Shown piece by piece: positions 12,810-33,804 of a stretch of 34,582 nucleotides of DNA. The stretch lies in UHGV virus genome UHGV-0129090; one strand, 5' to 3'. Position 1 is the first letter of the stretch, and every line of letters begins with the position of its first letter. This stretch comes from a virus. A program made the position numbers and the translations under genes. The notes beneath the pieces are model-generated. The model was not told the DNA's origin. It did no database searches and worked only from the letters and a program-made list of their open reading frames with translations.

Positions 12810-15800
12810 TTATTTATTCTGTGCAATTAGTAATTGAGTTACTACAGCACGTAGTTCATCTAGTTGTAGCTGTTGGTCTGCAATTTGTGCTTTTAGAGTA
12901 TCATTTTCTTTAGATAGTTCTTGGATTGCCGCAAGTCCGTCTAATAGCATTGGGGTTTGATCTAGATGATACAATTCACCAATTTTATTAACGTACTGTG
13001 GATCAATAGTCCTAATCTGTTGGCTAATTACACCGCGACGGGCTTTATCAGGGGTATCATTGAATGTAAAATCCTTAAATTCCATTCTATTGATATTTGA
13101 TAGAGCTACCTTAGTGTCTAAATCACTCTGGATAGTTTTAACAGACTGGTCAGATACTGCCGACATGGTTATTTGGTTCCATGCACTCCATGAGCTGTTG
13201 TTAGTCTGGATACGTGAGAATATACGGTTTGACGTATCATAGAAACGTTGTTGATACCATTGACCAGATACACCAGTTGCAGCACTAGGACCAGCATCTA
13301 GACCCTGCGTACATTGAGTGAATAGAGAGCCGTAAACACTACCCGACGTTGGGGCGTTAGACATAACACCGCCAGTATTTTTCCATCCTTGATACTGAAT
13401 GTTAAAATCATTACCAGACCCACCGTCTGTACTGTTACCGTTTGGTGCTAGGCCGCCATTATAGCCGACATACATCACTGTATTTGCCGATGGTTTGGCA
13501 AAACGTATAGTTTTACGGTTGGTAGTTGATGTATGACCATCCATAAAGAGATATAGACCATCCTCACCATTATTTTCAAAATATACACGTTTCCCAATAG
13601 TACCGTCGCCTACTCGGTTAGAGATAAGATAAACTCCGGGATAGTTGGCTTGTGCAACCAGTTTACTAGAAGAAATAATATCACCACTTGCCGTAACAGT
13701 ACCGGTAGATATTGATCCAGACGTTACAGTACCTGTTGTAGTCAATGATGCAGCATTAATACTATCAGTTGCTACAATAGATTCAGCATTTACACTACCT
13801 GTTGTAGTTAGTGATGCGGCGTTCAAACTACCTGTTGTAGTCAATGTACCCGTACTGGATAGATTACCCGTAACAGATAGATTTTTTAGAGTGGTATTTG
13901 CTGCTGCTGTACTAAGTGTATCCGTACTAGCTGTATATTTAATTACATCAAATGTATCATTTTTAGATAATGTAATATTACCAGCCGTTCCAATTAGTGA
14001 ATATTTTGTAGCACCTGTTCCCGTTTGATTGAGAATAAATGCAGGTGATCCACCTTCAATTGTAATTGGTGATGTTACTTTACCAGTGATTGATAGATTA
14101 CCATTAAATGATTGAGTACCTGCCCATGTATTAGCTAGATTCAGTGCTGGAATCTGATTCCATGTTCCATGTGTGCCAGCTTCGATAGTACGGAAGAATG
14201 CTTTATTCTGTCGGCCTACAATCTGGAAACCATAATTACCACTAAAGCCAGTATGAGTACCACCATAAACGTTAGCACCGTCTGGACCATTCACACTACC
14301 AGCCAGAAATCTACTACGGTTAATAATGGACGTTTGACCGTTCCAGTCCTGACCAGTTGAAGATAAAAATCCATTTGGTGAACTAAATGTACCATCGCTA
14401 TTAAAGTTGAAGAATTGAGTAGTATCACTTGAAGTAACGCCACGCCATACTAATTGAATTGCACCGTCGCTAGTTCTAAATTCTGATTGAGATTTAGTAG
14501 TTTTATCTGCATTCAATTGTTTTGATACAAAGGTAAAATCATTTACACCAGTACCGGAAGCAATAAAACCGTTACCCGCTTCAATATTACCACTAAAGGT
14601 TAATTTAGGAGATGTAATTGTTAGGTTATCGCCAATATTCATCCCATTTGAAAGTACAGCACGACCGCCACCACCGATATAATAGTTTGGTGTAGTAGTA
14701 GAACTATTGGACATATAAAAGCCAGGACGAGCTTGTCTAAAATCGAATAATGCACGTGTTCCGTTTGCTACTGCGGTACTCATTGGATCTTCTACGCCCC
14801 ACGGATAAACTACATCAGTCCCAGCGGTATATGATGCCGTTGGTGCAAATGCGGTACAGAATGCGGGTATCCTCATACGTACTGGGAACGCTCGACCCTC
14901 TACATATACTGCCATCTTATCTTCTGCAATCTTCGCACTAACTAGAATACAGTTAAGTGCTTTTTCAGTTGGTGCATAGCAGTTATAGTAACCATAGCCA
15001 GCATCACCGCGATCTGTCCATCCACCAGCACGTACGAAGCCGTTAAACTGTGCGGAGTTCATTGGATCACCACCAGAAGACGATTTAGTATATAGGTCGA
15101 TATGTGCACCAGTAGAAGAAATATTTTCATAGGATAGATCAATAATTACTGGATAGTATTTGTCTGCTTCCACTCCCGGAGGTGCCGGAATTGCGATTAT
15201 TTGACCACTACCAACGGTAGGGGCTTTAATATTATTTCTAGCAGTAGTAACGTCTGCTACATCACTTAGATTACTTGCAATTTTCAATTGTGCATCATTG
15301 GTTACATTACTTAGTCCTACATCACCTTTAGTGATTGAGATATTACCAGTAAGTGCTTTGCCATTAATAGTAGTAGTTTTTGGTACATATAGATTACTAA
15401 CTTCGGAAGAAGAAAGAATACCTAAGTTTGTTCTCGCCTGTGCTGCCGTACTTGCACCAGTACCGCCCTGTAGAATTGGTAATGCGTATGGTGCGTTGGC
15501 TGTGCCGTTCCATACTCCCCAGGTGCCATCGTTCTTAACAAATAAACGCATATTACCATCACCGGATACTACGCGAGTTTCTCCAACTGGATTAGCGTAT
15601 TCTTGGAAACGGCTTAAACCTAAGTTAGTACGGGCAACTGATTTATCAGCCACATCAGCAAGGTTACTTGCAATTTTCAACTGTGCATCATTGGTTACAT
15701 TACTTAGTCCTACATCACCTTTAGTGATTGAGATATTTGTAGTAAGTGGTCTACCGTTAATAGTACGGGATAATGGCACATACTGATCACTAATCTGAGT

Positions 15801-16511
15801 TGCAGTAAGTATACGCGTCCATGCTGTATTCTGGTTCTTTGCATAGATTGCCAATGTACCGGATTTAGTCATTGCAATACTGGAGAATGTACCGGAATCG
15901 ATAAGACCAATACCCATTAGATCCGCACTAGCTGGGTTATCATTGCGTGCTGCTGGTACTTTGATAAAACTGTTGCCATTTGGTAACTGTGGTTCGTACT
16001 GTGGTACGTCTACGCCGTTACTACCTACGCCATATGATCCTACAACTAGTCCGGTACTCAATGGTGCTTGACCATCACGTACTAGAACGTCGGTAGGGGT
16101 AAAGGTATATGATTTAGTAACTACTGAGTCTTTATCACCAGCAAGGCGAGCGGAACTAATCATACCATTCACCATACTATAGGAGATGATACCATCAGTT
16201 ACGGCGTACTGTAGTGTTAGCTGGAACTCGGTCTGATCTTCGGTCGCTTGGTCTAAAAATGCGTGAGCGGTGCAATCTGGTACGTAGTTAACAACAATAT
16301 CAATATCGTTTACGTTCTGTTCTGCGAGTAGTTTCTCTGAAAATTCACTGTTATATACTTCAATAGATTGTACTTGGCTATCAATACCGAATGAAGGCAT
16401 CGCCGCCAATTCATTTACTAGTTCATTCCCTGCGTTATCGGGGATACGGTTTGCGGTGTCGTCATTATAGAATAATTTAAAACCACTCCCTGTAAAAATT
16501 TGATCTGCCAT
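12810..16511 (-). CDS. Tail fibre protein with N-terminal major-tail-protein-like domain, tandem fibre repeats and C-terminal intramolecular-chaperone (peptidase S74-like) region
   Basis: 1233 aa; residues about 1-150 align with the 152-aa major tail protein; duplicated ITKGDVGLSNVTNDAQLKIASNL motif; Gly/Ser/Thr-rich shaft; C-terminal coiled coil. Confidence 0.7.
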   Translation of the reverse strand: MADQIFTGSGFKLFYNDDTANRIPDNAGNELVNELAAMPSFGIDSQVQSIEVYNSEFSEKLLAEQNVNDIDIVVNYVPDCTAHAFLDQATEDQTEFQLTLQYAVTDGIISYSMVNGMISSARLAGDKDSVVTKSYTFTPTDVLVRDGQAPLSTGLVVGSYGVGSNGVDVPQYEPQLPNGNSFIKVPAARNDNPASADLMGIGLIDSGTFSSIAMTKSGTLAIYAKNQNTAWTRILTATQISDQYVPLSRTINGRPLTTNISITKGDVGLSNVTNDAQLKIASNLADVADKSVARTNLGLSRFQEYANPVGETRVVSGDGNMRLFVKNDGTWGVWNGTANAPYALPILQGGTGASTAAQARTNLGILSSSEVSNLYVPKTTTINGKALTGNISITKGDVGLSNVTNDAQLKIASNLSDVADVTTARNNIKAPTVGSGQIIAIPAPPGVEADKYYPVIIDLSYENISSTGAHIDLYTKSSSGGDPMNSAQFNGFVRAGGWTDRGDAGYGYYNCYAPTEKALNCILVSAKIAEDKMAVYVEGRAFPVRMRIPAFCTAFAPTASYTAGTDVVYPWGVEDPMSTAVANGTRALFDFRQARPGFYMSNSSTTTPNYYIGGGGRAVLSNGMNIGDNLTITSPKLTFSGNIEAGNGFIASGTGVNDFTFVSKQLNADKTTKSQSEFRTSDGAIQLVWRGVTSSDTTQFFNFNSDGTFSSPNGFLSSTGQDWNGQTSIINRSRFLAGSVNGPDGANVYGGTHTGFSGNYGFQIVGRQNKAFFRTIEAGTHGTWNQIPALNLANTWAGTQSFNGNLSITGKVTSPITIEGGSPAFILNQTGTGATKYSLIGTAGNITLSKNDTFDVIKYTASTDTLSTAAANTTLKNLSVTGNLSSTGTLTTTGSLNAASLTTTGSVNAESIVATDSINAASLTTTGTVTSGSISTGTVTASGDIISSSKLVAQANYPGVYLISNRVGDGTIGKRVYFENNGEDGLYLFMDGHTSTTNRKTIRFAKPSANTVMYVGYNGGLAPNGNSTDGGSGNDFNIQYQGWKNTGGVMSNAPTSGSVYGSLFTQCTQGLDAGPSAATGVSGQWYQQRFYDTSNRIFSRIQTNNSSWSAWNQITMSAVSDQSVKTIQSDLDTKVALSNINRMEFKDFTFNDTPDKARRGVISQQIRTIDPQYVNKIGELYHLDQTPMLLDGLAAIQELSKENDTLKAQIADQQLQLDELRAVVTQLLIAQNK

Positions 16512-24130: not shown

Positions 24131-24176
24131 GGTGTGATACTCCTATAGCATGTATAGGAGTATTTAGGGGATGGGA

Positions 24177-24833: not shown

Positions 24834-24886
24834 TATATTTTTCCTCGTTAGATTGAATAGCCCACTGTGAGTAGTGGGCTAGATTA

Positions 24887-25360: not shown

Positions 25361-25411
25361 TTACTTTCCTTATTAGATTAAAAAGCCCACTAATAAAAGT
25401 GGGCTATATTA

Positions 25412-25621
25412 TTAGTTAGTATCGAATAATGGCGGTATTTGTGGTATTTCTACTTCCCCTTCAATTGGTTTGCCGTATTGGTCTGCTACCTTTATTACAG
25501 TTTCCTTATAAGGATTAATACTATAATAGTGTTGATGGTCTTCGGTACTAACAATGATACGCTCAATACTCATATTATATTCCGTGATATTACGGATTGC
25601 TTTAATTAGTTTCTCTGACAT
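25412..25621 (-). CDS. Hypothetical small protein
   Basis: 69-aa ORF; stop followed by the same hairpin module as 24887-25360. Confidence 0.4.
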   Translation of the reverse strand: MSEKLIKAIRNITEYNMSIERIIVSTEDHQHYYSINPYKETVIKVADQYGKPIEGEVEIPQIPPLFDTN

Positions 25622-25630
25622 ATATATCCC

Positions 25631-26017
25631 TTATTTTATTTTAACGCAGTTTTGAAAGTAGTAATTACGAGTATCAGATCTCAATAAGAAGATAAAAGTA
25701 ATATCGTTTTGCTCTTTACTTCCCATTGTTGCAAGGAAGTATCGCTGCCTATCATTATCATAAGCCATTGTCATTGAATCATTAGATTCTATTGGTCCGG
25801 TGGCGTGAGTCATTGCACCGAAGTTAAGGATAAAACCATCACTATTAACTTTAGCGTGACCTGCACCAGAATAAGAAGATTTTTCTACTGGAGTATCACC
25901 CAGCATTTCAACTACTTTCACATCACATTGATACAATCCCTGCTCTGGTAGAGAGTGAGTGTTAGCCAGTACCGAAGGAGCTACTAACAGTAATGCAGAT
26001 ACGATAACCTTTTTCAT
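25631..26017 (-). CDS. Secreted/periplasmic protein with N-terminal signal peptide (paralog A)
   Basis: MKKVIVSALLLVAPSVLA signal sequence; two Cys; paralogous to 26027-26407. Confidence 0.55.
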   Translation of the reverse strand: MKKVIVSALLLVAPSVLANTHSLPEQGLYQCDVKVVEMLGDTPVEKSSYSGAGHAKVNSDGFILNFGAMTHATGPIESNDSMTMAYDNDRQRYFLATMGSKEQNDITFIFLLRSDTRNYYFQNCVKIK

Positions 26018-26026
26018 TTCTATTCC

Positions 26027-26407
26027 TTATTCAATAATACAATTGGAGAAGTTCAAAAATACGGGATTATTCTCATTGCTGACCATATACTGTGTTTTAC
26101 CATCGATTGCACTAATAATAATATCGTACTGGTCAGTATCTACGGCATAGGCCATCAGGCGACCGCTTTTAAGTTTTGAAACAGGGCTGAATGAAATATT
26201 CACATCCCTAAACTTCACACTAACAGCACGGTTATCAATACTCACATAACCAGTCATACCATAATAACCAGTCTTTACTACTCGCTTTCCTACCTGTTCC
26301 CACGATTCAACACCGCAACGATACAGACCATCATCAGGGAGTATTACATTTACTGCCAGTACCGAAGGGGCTACTAACAGTAATGCAGACAGTACAATCT
26401 TTTTCAT
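26027..26407 (-). CDS. Secreted/periplasmic protein with N-terminal signal peptide (paralog B; track ORF 26027-26419)
   Basis: MKKIVLSALLLVAPSVLA signal sequence nearly identical to paralog A at nucleotide level; shared LP-x-x-GLY-x-C and NC-[VI] motifs. Confidence 0.55.
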   Translation of the reverse strand: MKKIVLSALLLVAPSVLAVNVILPDDGLYRCGVESWEQVGKRVVKTGYYGMTGYVSIDNRAVSVKFRDVNISFSPVSKLKSGRLMAYAVDTDQYDIIISAIDGKTQYMVSNENNPVFLNFSNCIIE

Positions 26408-26586
26408 AAATTCATCCATTCGGGATTATCTACTTTATCAGAATCAATGGCATTGTTGATGCCAGATAATGACAGTGTTTTTGATTACGGCGACTGCAAT
26501 TTAATAAGTAGGGTTAATGTATTTTATTATATCATAGTAATATGCAGTCCCCATAACTAAAAGTACGGCAAATATTGTTTTCTTCA

Positions 26587-26967
26587 TCACAGATTATCGT
26601 CTATATAATTAGTTGGTTTCGAGAACTCAAATTCTGTACCGTAATTATTTGAACGATCAACTATCTTAGTGGTGTTTTTGTGGGGGCCGTGGGCTTTATG
26701 TTCTTCGAAGCTATGAATATTTGTAAGTCGGTCGGCGGCAATAATACAGCTACCAGTAGATGGGCGTTCTTCACCCAATAGCATAGGCTGACAATCACTA
26801 CTGAATTGTGGGCGATACTCTTTACCACCATTTACGGGGAATAATACTAGTGTACGACCGTTAATATCACCTACTACGGCTTCATTCATAAAAGCAGGCG
26901 TTATAGTAGTACAGCCAGTAGTGATTGTAGCCGTAGCGAGTACAGCTAGGGCAAAGAGATGTTTCAT
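26587..26967 (-). CDS. Putative lipoprotein
   Basis: MKHLFALAVLATATITTGC: signal peptide ending in a lipobox-like TTGC. Confidence 0.5.
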   Translation of the reverse strand: MKHLFALAVLATATITTGCTTITPAFMNEAVVGDINGRTLVLFPVNGGKEYRPQFSSDCQPMLLGEERPSTGSCIIAADRLTNIHSFEEHKAHGPHKNTTKIVDRSNNYGTEFEFSKPTNYIDDNL

Positions 26968-27075
26968 TAGTAAATCCTTGTAGTGATTGTGTGGAGTGAT
27001 GCTTGATGTGAATTATTATAGCTATGATATTTAGTAATAGCTACTACTTTATTTGTGTAGTAGCTATTATTATTC

Positions 27076-28686: not shown

Positions 28687-28799
28687 TAACGTCAACACTA
28701 GTTACTAAAATAATTTATTAGTAGAAAACGCTTGATAGTAACTAACGGTAGTGTATACTGTCTTTATTGAAGCAAAACACTACTACGAAGGGATATATA

Positions 28800-28982
28800 A
28801 TGAATACAGTAACTTACTTAGAACGCGGTAACATCACTGATATCATGGTTAACGATGTATATATGGGGGCGGTAGTAAAAGGTGACGATAACAAATATCG
28901 TACCGTACATAAGAACAATGCAGAATCTGGTACGTTTACTGCTTTCCACTTCGCAGCGTACCATGTAGAAAAAGCAGTATGA
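28800..28982 (+). CDS. Hypothetical small protein (track ORF from alternative start at 28767; ATG at 28800 has a better ribosome-binding site)
   Basis: gaaggg about 8 nt upstream of ATG at 28800; one of only a few plus-strand genes; followed by terminator. Confidence 0.4.
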   Translation: MNTVTYLERGNITDIMVNDVYMGAVVKGDDNKYRTVHKNNAESGTFTAFHFAAYHVEKAV

Positions 28983-28993
28983 TAGAAACGATG

Positions 28994-29018
28994 AAGCCCA
29001 CATTAAGTGGGCTTTTTT
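28994..29018. terminator. Rho-independent terminator (bidirectional, between convergent genes)
   Basis: Stem aagcccac / gtgggctt with loop attaa, then tttttt. Confidence 0.65.
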
Positions 29019-31561: not shown

Positions 31562-31714
31562 TTAGTTAGAAGAAAGTACCGCGTGTTTATTGATTAGATA
31601 CTGTATTGCAGCACTACGCGTTTTCGCTTTTCCTTCGGTAATTAGTTTATCAAGTACATCGGCTTGGGCTTCAGATACTCGCACACCAATACTAATTGAT
31701 TTGTTTTCTTTCAT
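31562..31714 (-). CDS. Ribbon-helix-helix (Arc/CopG-like) DNA-binding protein; short ORF absent from the supplied track
   Basis: My translation: MKENKSISIGVRVSEAQADVLDKLITEGKAKTRSAAIQYLINKHAVLSSN; strand-helix-helix pattern; aaggaag ribosome-binding site about 6 nt upstream of ATG. Confidence 0.55.
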   Translation of the reverse strand: MKENKSISIGVRVSEAQADVLDKLITEGKAKTRSAAIQYLINKHAVLSSN

Positions 31715-31765
31715 ATAGCTTCCTTTTTTGTTGAACAAATTGCTAAAAATTAAATCCGAAAATAT

Positions 31766-31899: not shown

Positions 31900-32082
31900 C
31901 TAGATTTTTTTATAATTGATTGATTGGTATAGAAAAACTAATCCCTTCACTATATAAGCCAGTACCGCTACGCCTAGAAACATGAAAAAGCCTACATATA
32001 GTACCTTAATGAATCCAGATACCAGTACCACTACCCCTAAAACCATAATCAATGCCGTGTAGATCCAATCCATCATAATCAT
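31900..32082 (-). CDS. Small hydrophobic membrane protein (two predicted TM helices)
   Basis: 60 aa, almost entirely hydrophobic, ending in basic NYKKI. Confidence 0.4.
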   Translation of the reverse strand: MIMMDWIYTALIMVLGVVVLVSGFIKVLYVGFFMFLGVAVLAYIVKGLVFLYQSINYKKI

Positions 32083-32205: not shown

Positions 32206-33804
32206 TCACTTCCTACTGTCAATCATTGTAGTAGCTAATGCCATTGCACCATCTACTACATTCTTCCAATACTCTAAAGCATCATCATCAAGATCACCAG
32301 ACAACGTACCATCTAGACTAAGACTACTAACAGATCTTAGAGTAGTAGTTAGTGTATTAGTACCACCAGTACCAGTACGCTGTATATCTACATCAATAAT
32401 CACTAGATGGCTTAGTGCATCAGACCAATACTTGATAGTACAGTATATGGTGTACTTAGACTTGCTTACATCTTCCCGTACTATGTTTATGTGCTGTATT
32501 AGCTTCTTAATGCGGTTGTTTAGTTCGATGCGATAGTTAGTATCTAAATCTAACTTATCATCATCAAAGGTTAGCTGTATATCCTTCGGTACGTCTACTG
32601 ATTTTAGGCGTATAGTCAATTCTTCCTGTTCGCGGTTCATGATCTCTAATTCATCCAGTATCGCAAACTTTTCATGCCTACTAGCTTTATTAAGACGTTC
32701 ACGGAACGCGGCAATATCCCTTTCGTTCTGAATCCACTGATCACGCAATGTTAGTACGTTATTATCTTCATGTTTATATACTTCACTGAAATCTAATCCA
32801 CGAATCGCCGTTAGTAATGGGCGTTCTAATGCGTTATATGCAATGCTACGGGCTTCACACGTTTTATTAGTACGTTTACCTAAGCAGACTGTAAAAAGAT
32901 TACCGTGGCTGTTACGCTTCACTATAATTGATTGATTGCATACTGGACACCGTGACATACCCGAAAATATATTGAGCATGTTTTTTTGGTGAGTATTACC
33001 CTTTTTGTTGGTGCTGGCTTTTAATGCCTGTACGCGGTCGTATAGGTCTTTATCAATTATTGGTGGATAACGTGCATCATCGGCAACTCGTTTATCACTA
33101 AGAGCACGTAATACGGTTACTAGTGTCCACGGCTTACCATTATCAGTATTGCCATAAGTACGGACAATCTGAGCCGCACCAATGCCATTAATATAATCAT
33201 TATACATACGCTGGATCGCCTTTGCTGTATCATTTGTACGGTACTGTTTCACGCCGTCTAGCTCTACTACATCAAACCATCGAGGCCGCACCTTTGATAC
33301 TTTTCCGTAGCGGTTGGCGTGTGACTTCTGCATCATTATACTTTTGCGTTTTGACTCCCCGTTAGCACGGTTTATTTGTATTGTAAGCACACTTAAACTT
33401 TCTGGAATATAACGCGAATACGTCATTCCTGTCTCAATCTCTAGGATAGTAGTACCACGGTTAATTAGACCGGATATGATTTCTACTGCCTGAAATGGAT
33501 CAAGACGTGTAAGGCGGTCGATGTTCTCTACGATTAGTACAGAATCATTGATCACACCGTCCATAACCATCTTTCGGTACTTGCCTAAGAGTGTTTTTTC
33601 ATTCCAGTTCTTCCCACGGAACGCCGATTTACCCTCTGCTACCATCTGCGTTATGTTCTCGGTATCGAGCGTAAAAGGTAGTCGATGGTCTAATACAACA
33701 TACTGTAAAAACTGATTGATTGTGTTTACCTGCCTTTGAATACCAAAGCCGTCAACCTGCTTGAGCGTTGAGATACGGGCATAACACCATACGGGCACTT
33801 TCAT
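32206..33804 (-). CDS. Large serine recombinase (phage integrase)
   Basis: N-terminal resolvase-type catalytic region YARISTLKQ and VENIDRLTR, followed by a large C-terminal domain with a Cys cluster (CPVCN...C...C); GGAGGT ribosome-binding site; start about 40 bp from attR. Confidence 0.85.
   Translation of the reverse strand: MKVPVWCYARISTLKQVDGFGIQRQVNTINQFLQYVVLDHRLPFTLDTENITQMVAEGKSAFRGKNWNEKTLLGKYRKMVMDGVINDSVLIVENIDRLTRLDPFQAVEIISGLINRGTTILEIETGMTYSRYIPESLSVLTIQINRANGESKRKSIMMQKSHANRYGKVSKVRPRWFDVVELDGVKQYRTNDTAKAIQRMYNDYINGIGAAQIVRTYGNTDNGKPWTLVTVLRALSDKRVADDARYPPIIDKDLYDRVQALKASTNKKGNTHQKNMLNIFSGMSRCPVCNQSIIVKRNSHGNLFTVCLGKRTNKTCEARSIAYNALERPLLTAIRGLDFSEVYKHEDNNVLTLRDQWIQNERDIAAFRERLNKASRHEKFAILDELEIMNREQEELTIRLKSVDVPKDIQLTFDDDKLDLDTNYRIELNNRIKKLIQHINIVREDVSKSKYTIYCTIKYWSDALSHLVIIDVDIQRTGTGGTNTLTTTLRSVSSLSLDGTLSGDLDDDALEYWKNVVDGAMALATTMIDSRK

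Follow-up and report, generated by a model that had tools for sequence, protein, structure and literature searches.

Prophages encode many exported proteins, most of them uncharacterised, and these form a large reservoir of functions in superinfection exclusion and lysogenic conversion. Phage T4 Spackle (Sp) is a helical protein that acts as a periplasmic inhibitor of the gp5 tail lysozyme, and T5 Llp has a late role in which it masks receptors on debris and protects the progeny. The P2 old/tin/fun loci and the P2/P4 hotspots are prophage defence hotspots. Barrel proteins of the bacterial periplasm are also relevant here. MliC/PliC proteins carry two motifs, SxSGAxY in the beta4-beta5 loop and YxxxTKG in beta6 (PMC5507604). 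The PliC/PhiA/ACP group consists of eight-stranded barrels, and a disulfide between the first and last strands has been described for ACP and PhiA, neither of which has the MliC motifs (PMC5507604, PMC8334348). ACP shares less than 20% sequence similarity with MliC/PliC (PMC5507604) and still inhibits lysozyme (PMC5507604, PMC8334348). The present analysis concerns a block of small exported proteins, encoded by genes A, B and C, in the virus genome UHGV-0129090, a stretch of 34,582 nucleotides that we call the window.

Positions 677-33804 of the window are a complete siphovirus prophage of ~33 kb, inserted in Escherichia coli yegD by a large serine recombinase, and the two ends of the window are the two halves of that gene. 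An original prediction, made from the sequence, had already called the element a prophage; it had described tandem paralogous secreted proteins and an upstream lipoprotein in its early region, and had named superinfection exclusion or receptor masking as candidate functions. The three open reading frames (ORFs) are all found where they had been placed, on the minus strand, with lengths in amino acids (aa) and distances in nucleotides (nt):

26587-26967, minus strand: gene C, a 126-aa prolipoprotein with lipobox ITTG/C (slash, predicted cleavage site), Cys19 and 108 aa in the mature part
26027-26407, minus strand: gene A, encoding a 126-aa precursor (Sec signal peptide of 18 aa, mature part of 108 aa)
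25631-26017, minus strand: gene B, a paralogue of A encoding a 128-aa precursor; its signal peptide and cysteine pattern are those of A
26355-26407, minus strand: signal-peptide-coding direct repeat, copy 1 (in A)
25965-26017, minus strand: signal-peptide-coding direct repeat, copy 2 (in B), 390 nt from copy 1

Judged by their sequences, A, B and C are new families with no detectable homologues outside one prophage lineage, and they belong to a well-known kind, the prophage-encoded exported accessory proteins. The slot that holds them is a recombination hotspot for accessory, exchangeable genes. We tentatively favour, at rather less than even confidence, the reading that the products of the block are accessory envelope proteins serving to protect the lysogen or the infected cell, with superinfection exclusion as the most probable form of that protection.

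Export signals, paralogy and rarity

Signal peptides of A and B are tripartite (MKK, then IVLSALLLVA, then PSVLA before the cleavage site), with a KK n-region, a hydrophobic core of ~10 residues (mean Kyte-Doolittle value 2.55-2.58 over residues 4-18) and V-L-A at positions -3 to -1. The N-termini read MKKIVLSALLLVAPSVLA/VNV in A and MKKVIVSALLLVAPSVLA/NTH in B, and signal-peptide rules predict that both proteins are exported by the Sec pathway and cleaved by signal peptidase I (SPase I). The start of A is more likely the MKK codon at 26407 than the upstream ATG at 26419, which would add MDEF, because the upstream codon has no ribosome-binding site; RefSeq also uses MKK. An AAGGA Shine-Dalgarno sequence precedes B.

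The two signal peptides are identical at 15 of 18 residues and 47 of 54 nucleotides, and only 25 of the following 54 nucleotides agree. BLASTP aligns A and B over their full length at 32% identity (E = 6e-19) and their mature parts at 25% identity (E = 2e-9), by which they are true paralogues. Two cysteines are invariant in the family, one in the motif GLY[RQ]C[GD]V near the mature N-terminus and one in F.NC at the C-terminus (mature positions 13 and 105 of A). Near-identical signal peptides, shared cysteine motifs and divergence of the remaining sequence had each been claimed in the original prediction, and all of these are borne out. The two repeat copies cross-match by blastn (53 nt at 88.7%) and are a likely substrate for unequal crossing-over.

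Gene C is the lipobox gene that had been noticed upstream of the pair. The PROSITE lipobox PS51257 is [LIVMFWSTAG]2-[LIVMFYSTAGCQ]-[AGS]-C within residues 15-35, and it further demands a basic residue among the first seven and no charge in the six residues before the box. The C product (MKHLFALAVLATATITTG/C) fits this pattern and is the sole genuine lipobox ORF of the 34.6 kb window, and G18 and C19 are invariant across all C homologues. Under the Lol rule, lipoproteins without Asp at +2 go to the outer membrane. Residue +2 of C is Thr (Ser in the homologues P0011 and P0012), with no Asp at this position, which predicts an outer-membrane lipoprotein. C carries two more conserved cysteines, C59 and C74, its C-terminal tail is His-rich and probably disordered, and an AAGGA Shine-Dalgarno sequence lies 9 nt upstream of the gene. 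The signal-peptide and lipobox prediction that had been suggested as a check therefore gives all three products export signals by sequence rules.

All three proteins are rare. In a collection of 5.8 billion proteins, A has six clusters, C has six and B only its own. An exhaustive search of 1.84 billion representatives with a profile of the mature A/B family returned six proteins, all in this prophage lineage and at the same position, which in most loci lies after the homologue of a 227-aa gene and before the homologues of a 128-aa gene and TerS. The most distant members (P0016 and P0017, ~23% identity) have an N-terminal membrane anchor and linker and no cleavable signal; the anchor would still place the barrel domain (see below) in the periplasm. 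The host of one of these two has a yegD with only 79% identity to the E. coli gene, which indicates a different enterobacterial genus.

Three candidate relatives of the A/B family were rejected. Botulinum HA33 was the only match of the A/B profile among PDB sequences (E = 0.0015, per-domain 0.045) and is spurious, since the aligned stretch spans the junction of two beta-trefoil domains, which is incompatible with the barrel model. A 152-aa lipoprotein from the related locus L002 and a 113-aa secreted protein from L010 were ruled out by hhalign as hidden family members.

Predicted fold of A and the MliC/PliC group

AlphaFold modelled mature A with a predicted local distance difference test (pLDDT) score of 91.9 and a predicted template modelling (pTM) score of 0.84, with only five sequences in the input. 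The model is a nine-strand up-and-down beta-barrel whose cysteines lie in the first (9-21) and last (96-107) strands, and in both A and B a disulfide made by DsbA probably joins these two strands and closes the barrel. Structure prediction had also been suggested as a check, and it was informative for A, a confident barrel, and uninformative for C (pLDDT 55). Structural comparison of the A model gave the following values:

PliC-St (3oe3): 8.1; 2.7 A; 77/85
PhiA (7dpy): 8.0; 2.4 A; 76/90
Brucella PliC (4mir): 7.6; 2.4 A; 75/97
Neisseria ACP (6gq4): 6.8; 2.9 A; 78/103

A and B have the architecture of MliC/PliC (PF09864), an antiparallel beta-barrel that is predicted to reside in the periplasm. 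B contains SYSGAGH, but in the beta2-beta3 loop, and A is without it. Searching seven family members against Pfam at E up to 10 gave no match, and so none to PF09864, and the A/B profile found no MliC or PliC among PDB sequences. E. coli MliC, in the sequence used for hhalign (which agrees with PDB 2f09), has EYQC...NNC at its ends, matching YxC...NC of A/B. Homology of A/B to MliC was rejected on the hhalign result, and the likeness is taken as a fold analogy only. On the model, A and B share the MliC/PliC architecture and cannot be filed as members of the family. A structure search of BFVD returned uncharacterised phage proteins only, some of them annotated as lipoproteins.

This architecture bears on a second explanation, lysogenic conversion or host fitness of the kind known for lambda Bor and Lom, in which the block would confer serum or lysozyme resistance, adhesion or tolerance of toxins aimed at the envelope, such as host lysozyme and T6SS or colicin muramidases, and A and B would be MliC/ACP-like inhibitors of peptidoglycan hydrolases. 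Moron-like accessory behaviour is equally expected under this explanation, the carriers of the prophage include human gut and stool isolates, and ACP shows that lysozyme can be inhibited without the MliC motifs (PMC5507604). However, A and B give no MliC/PliC motif, hidden Markov model (HMM) or hhalign signal, the fold match is generic, and the family is restricted to one prophage lineage. Hypervariable mosaic alleles would also suit an arms race with diverse phage targets better than a conserved lysozyme, and we consider lysogenic conversion doubtful as the main role of the block.

An exchangeable slot and a possible role in envelope exclusion

Variability was assessed in the window and 22 related loci. 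Identities between prophages and the variable segment are as follows:

227-aa gene: 97-100%
lipoprotein C: 85-99%
A slot (L002, L003, L004, L020): 49-55%
128-aa gene: 95-100%
TerL: 96-100%
B: absent from L002, L003, L004 and L020
24169-26310, minus strand: variable segment, with most of A, all of B and the 69-, 157- and 218-aa genes

Colinearity with the window ends inside A, at 26189 in L002 and at 26310 in L003-L005, and resumes at 25372 (25372-25377) or at 24168. Chimeric alleles occur. P0004 joins the N-terminus of A to the C-terminus of P0005, and the allele of L016 has a P0005-like N-terminus (KEVKVD), yet is 95% identical to A overall. Prophages carry zero, one or two barrel genes. C and the barrel are each missing from some loci: L006 has C and no barrel, and in L008 and L010 a barrel occurs without C. 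The barrel gene holds the same position in relatives down to about 40% TerL identity.

Relatives carry other cargo in the slot. L002 has the different, 152-aa lipoprotein mentioned above, L010 and L021 have unrelated small secreted two-cysteine proteins (113 aa and 109 aa, respectively), and L021 also has a DNA methyltransferase. L022 has a 225-aa lipoprotein and a multi-pass membrane protein, together with a 606-aa Old-family anti-phage nuclease (6795-8615, minus strand; AAA_15 and OLD TOPRIM domains; PADLOC Old, E = 1.4e-74). The Old gene lies beside the barrel gene and upstream of TerS, on the strand opposite to the lipoprotein and membrane protein genes. In L006 a C homologue stands alone after a divergent gene, with a predicted sigma-70-like promoter (10/12) and a predicted terminator (GC hairpin and T8), and this arrangement is, on these predictions, a classic moron layout. 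A, B and C are also present in some close relatives and absent from others, as is expected of morons. Two further observations were made in this region. L001 has fragments of an S-adenosylmethionine (SAM) methyltransferase further upstream, and in L021 (6001-6362) the C homologue is split into two overlapping frames (76 and 66 aa), with the 109-aa secreted protein next to it; the split is either a frameshift or a sequencing error.

Envelope exclusion, the reading we favour, would combine these features as follows. C, A, B and two small ORFs of 28 and 69 codons form one co-directional accessory block in the variable non-structural arm, presumably expressed in the lysogen. C would act at the inner face of the outer membrane, masking a receptor from the periplasmic side. 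A and B would be soluble periplasmic barrels whose targets are the parts of an incoming phage that cross the periplasm, such as a tail muramidase or ejection proteins, and the resulting phenotype would be exclusion of that phage. Recombination in and around the signal-peptide repeat would give a constant signal peptide, a hypervariable mature domain and tandem duplication, and would swap binding specificities carried on variable surfaces. A more specific proposal is that A and B are an unrecognised, sequence-orphan family of periplasmic barrels of MliC/PliC architecture that neutralises a periplasm-crossing component of rival phages (tail muramidase, tape-measure or ejection proteins), that the signal-peptide segment serves as a recombination handle for specificity cassettes, and that with C they make up a modular, multi-layer exclusion system. 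This proposal is unlikely as a whole. Should A, B or C block phage entry, natural alleles would map the specificity determinants directly.

The exclusion or receptor masking suggested in the original prediction is plausible, with circumstantial support. Export signals, the location in the non-structural arm of a prophage, the exchangeability of the genes and the Old nuclease in a relative's slot are consistent with it. The position in an "early region" held in so far as the arm is non-structural, and the label "early" was not established. A, B and C have no similarity to Cor, Llp, Sp, Imm or Sie in PHROGs, Pfam or PADLOC, and C is not beside the receptor-binding tail genes.

Several other observations weigh against envelope exclusion. 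A, B and C have no similarity, by sequence or HMM, to any known exclusion, defence or inhibitor family; none has a match in Pfam, PHROGs, NCBIfam or PADLOC, and tblastn of A against 50,697 phage records gave no match. The motifs SxSGAxY and YxxxTKG are not conserved in the A/B family alignment, and hhalign of A/B against E. coli MliC gave a probability of 0.7%. The C model is poor, with a tail below pLDDT 40 and no structural match, and, in contrast to cor and llp, C lies at a distance of about 19 kb from the gene for the central tail fibre. The guanine-plus-cytosine (GC) content of 0.32-0.40 over 25.2-27.0 kb is not atypical compared with ~0.39 for the whole phage, and the block therefore lacks the atypical base composition by which morons are also recognised. 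Promoter predictions in the window are no more numerous than in shuffled sequences. The block genes lie on the same strand as all lytic genes and could be part of a lytic operon.

The small ORFs and the signals in and around the block are as follows:

27035-27069, minus strand: hairpin with a 13-bp stem (TAATAGCTACTAC / GTAGTAGCTATTA), between the 227-aa gene and C
27015-27020, minus strand: TATAAT hexamer, a candidate -10 box, 48 nt upstream of the C ATG and with a poor -35
26501-26587, minus strand: hydrophobic 28-codon ORF MKKTIFAVLLVMGTAYYYDIIKYINPTY, between C and A, its start overlapping the C stop (TGATG)
26448-26464, minus strand: small hairpin in the gap between C and A (-12.4 kcal/mol, z = -3.0)
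25412-25621, minus strand: 69-aa ORF without an export signal, 9 nt after B and the last gene before the terminator
25384-25405, minus strand: terminator-like hairpin AGCCCACT...AGTGGGCT followed by UUUUU (-14 kcal/mol, z = -3.7)

The hairpin at 27035-27069 folds as RNA with -16.5 kcal/mol (z = -6.0 against shuffles) and has no U-run after it, which makes it a weak terminator or else a regulatory site. The TATAAT hexamer was read from the sequence and was not returned by the consensus promoter scan, and it is weak evidence for a promoter. From the TGATG overlap, the 28-codon ORF is predicted to be translationally coupled to C. Twelve loci share the short form, the common allele, which stops at a TAA where the 55-codon form of L003 has Tyr. 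The 69-aa ORF accompanies B in relatives. The hairpin at 25384-25405 closes the block of C, A, B and the 69-aa ORF and coincides with the mosaic breakpoint at 25372-25377.

A third explanation is a lytic-cycle role for the phage itself, with expression from the operon leading into the packaging genes. Examples would be periplasmic regulation of lysis by a T4 RI-type antiholin sensor, an o-spanin-like function of C, or masking of receptors on debris for the benefit of the progeny, as in the late role of T5 Llp. The genes have the same orientation as the structural genes, are spaced by gaps of 9 nt and have good Shine-Dalgarno sequences, and the barrel keeps its position among relatives as divergent as stated above. 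C is the only lipoprotein of the phage, and the sole Rz-like candidate (2867-3133; PHROG Rz-like, E = 0.008), which has an N-terminal membrane segment and a coiled coil, has no lipoprotein partner nearby. O-spanin genes reportedly adjoin or are embedded in the i-spanin gene, and their products are said to be short and proline-rich, whereas C is 23 kb from the lysis genes, has 108 aa in its mature form and contains only seven prolines. In addition, neither C nor the barrel is universal in the lineage, the C homologue of L006 has its own predicted promoter and terminator, and the genes for endolysin and holin-like proteins are found at the opposite end of the element. A lytic role is quite improbable. 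C was also rejected as a spanin, Bor or colicin-lysis protein on the basis of gene position, size and lack of homology, and it has no Pfam match to Bor (PF06291) and none to Lom.

Stx remains periplasmic until phage lysis, and two signal-peptide proteins encoded just upstream of the late genes could likewise be secreted effectors or toxins that are freed at lysis. Alternatively, the ORFs could be functionless and decaying; the 28-codon ORF is truncated by a stop relative to L003, and the split C homologue of L021 would fit decay if it is frameshifted. Both possibilities are very improbable indeed. About 25 independent assemblies have intact copies of A and B, conservation of B is 100% and structural residues are invariant. 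The model of A is a compact, confident fold without similarity to any toxin and without an enzymatic domain.

If A, B and C have no phage-related phenotype, they are an ordinary set of hypothetical exported proteins. The locus is a compact test case for exported prophage proteins, as it offers a confident barrel family, an allelic series, chimeras, copy-number variants and a hotspot with a defence gene.

The element and comparison with known systems

The prophage belongs to a rare, divergent, low-GC E. coli lineage. The same element lies between yegD and yegI/mdtA in two complete E. coli genomes, and two of 5426 complete E. coli genomes have the region. Prophage GC is ~0.39 compared with 0.52-0.55 in the host flanks. 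Megablast of the region against the 50,697 phage records gave no match, the closest phage TerL is 37% identical, and a literature search on yegD and prophage found nothing relevant. Nearly all long ORFs of the window are on the minus strand. The recognisable genes are:

32206-33804: large serine recombinase (integrase)
HNH-like gene
head and packaging genes: TerS and TerL, lambda-type portal, HK97-type capsid
tail genes: tail tube, tape measure, J-like tip fibre, long side fibre with an S74 chaperone domain
0.7-3.1 kb, left end: lysis genes (GH24-type endolysin and holin-like genes)

In the non-structural arm (~9 kb, 23.5-32.2 kb) no gene for replication, a repressor or an antirepressor is recognisable, and nearly all ORFs are orphans; an arm of 9 kb with almost no recognisable genes makes the host element of interest too.

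Other features of the element were noted. Directly downstream of the integrase, 31900-32082 (minus strand) encodes a 60-aa protein with two predicted membrane segments. A gene of ~50 aa downstream of the integrase (31562-31738, minus strand), whose L002 homologue is a ribbon-helix-helix protein in RefSeq, is possibly a small regulator or recombination directionality factor. The ORF at 12810-16511 (minus strand) encodes a 1233-aa protein whose first ~144 residues match phrog_158 (major tail protein), which is also matched by the adjoining 152-aa tube gene (12293-12751); its remainder resembles a tail fibre and carries an S74 intramolecular chaperone domain. Apparently a fibre has here been joined to a tube-like domain, in a gene upstream of that for the tube. 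Among the few plausible plus-strand genes is that of the GH24-type endolysin (2387-2839), which overlaps head-to-head with a minus-strand ORF (1909-2397) that has a homing-endonuclease PHROG match. L006 encodes a 947-aa early protein with a weak DEAD-helicase signal (3010-5853), which the phage of the window lacks, and early-gene content therefore differs widely within the lineage.

Three hairpins of the window (24859-24880, 25384-25405 and 28995-29013) share the stem AGCCCAC...GTGGGCT, where none is expected by chance. Two are intergenic with near-identical flanks (CTAATAAT.TAGCCCAC...GTGGGCT.TT.AATCT), and the third functions as terminator of the plus-strand gene 28767-28982. These hairpins may be terminators that double as recombination linkers.

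Compared with the known systems, C differs from Llp (T5) and Cor (phi80, N15, T1-like) in having no similarity to any PHROG or Pfam family. Mature C has ~108 aa and Llp ~60 aa. Unlike cor and llp, the C gene (26.6-27.0 kb) is away from the fibre genes, both the J-like fibre (4.4-7.7 kb) and the side fibre (12.8-16.5 kb). Like bor and lom, the genes of the block are exported accessory genes between the regulatory and late regions, they are variably present, and the lipoprotein gene of L006 is flanked by a predicted promoter and terminator of its own. They differ from bor and lom in lacking homology, in their normal base composition and in that several genes are chained rather than one per unit.

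A and B resemble MliC/PliC, ACP and PhiA as periplasmic or lipid-anchored proteins of ~85-110 residues, with a predicted up-and-down barrel and cysteines in the first and last strands. However, the model of A has nine strands and is ~20 residues longer, and A and B are prophage-encoded, hypervariable and sometimes tandem, with no detectable homology to that group. T4 Spackle is unrelated to A and B in sequence and fold, and the mechanism proposed for A and B would be alike in concept.

Like the prophage defence hotspots, the slot is fixed in position and its content is swapped among near-identical prophages, including an Old-family nuclease in L022. It differs from them in that it holds mostly small exported or membrane proteins rather than cytoplasmic nucleases.

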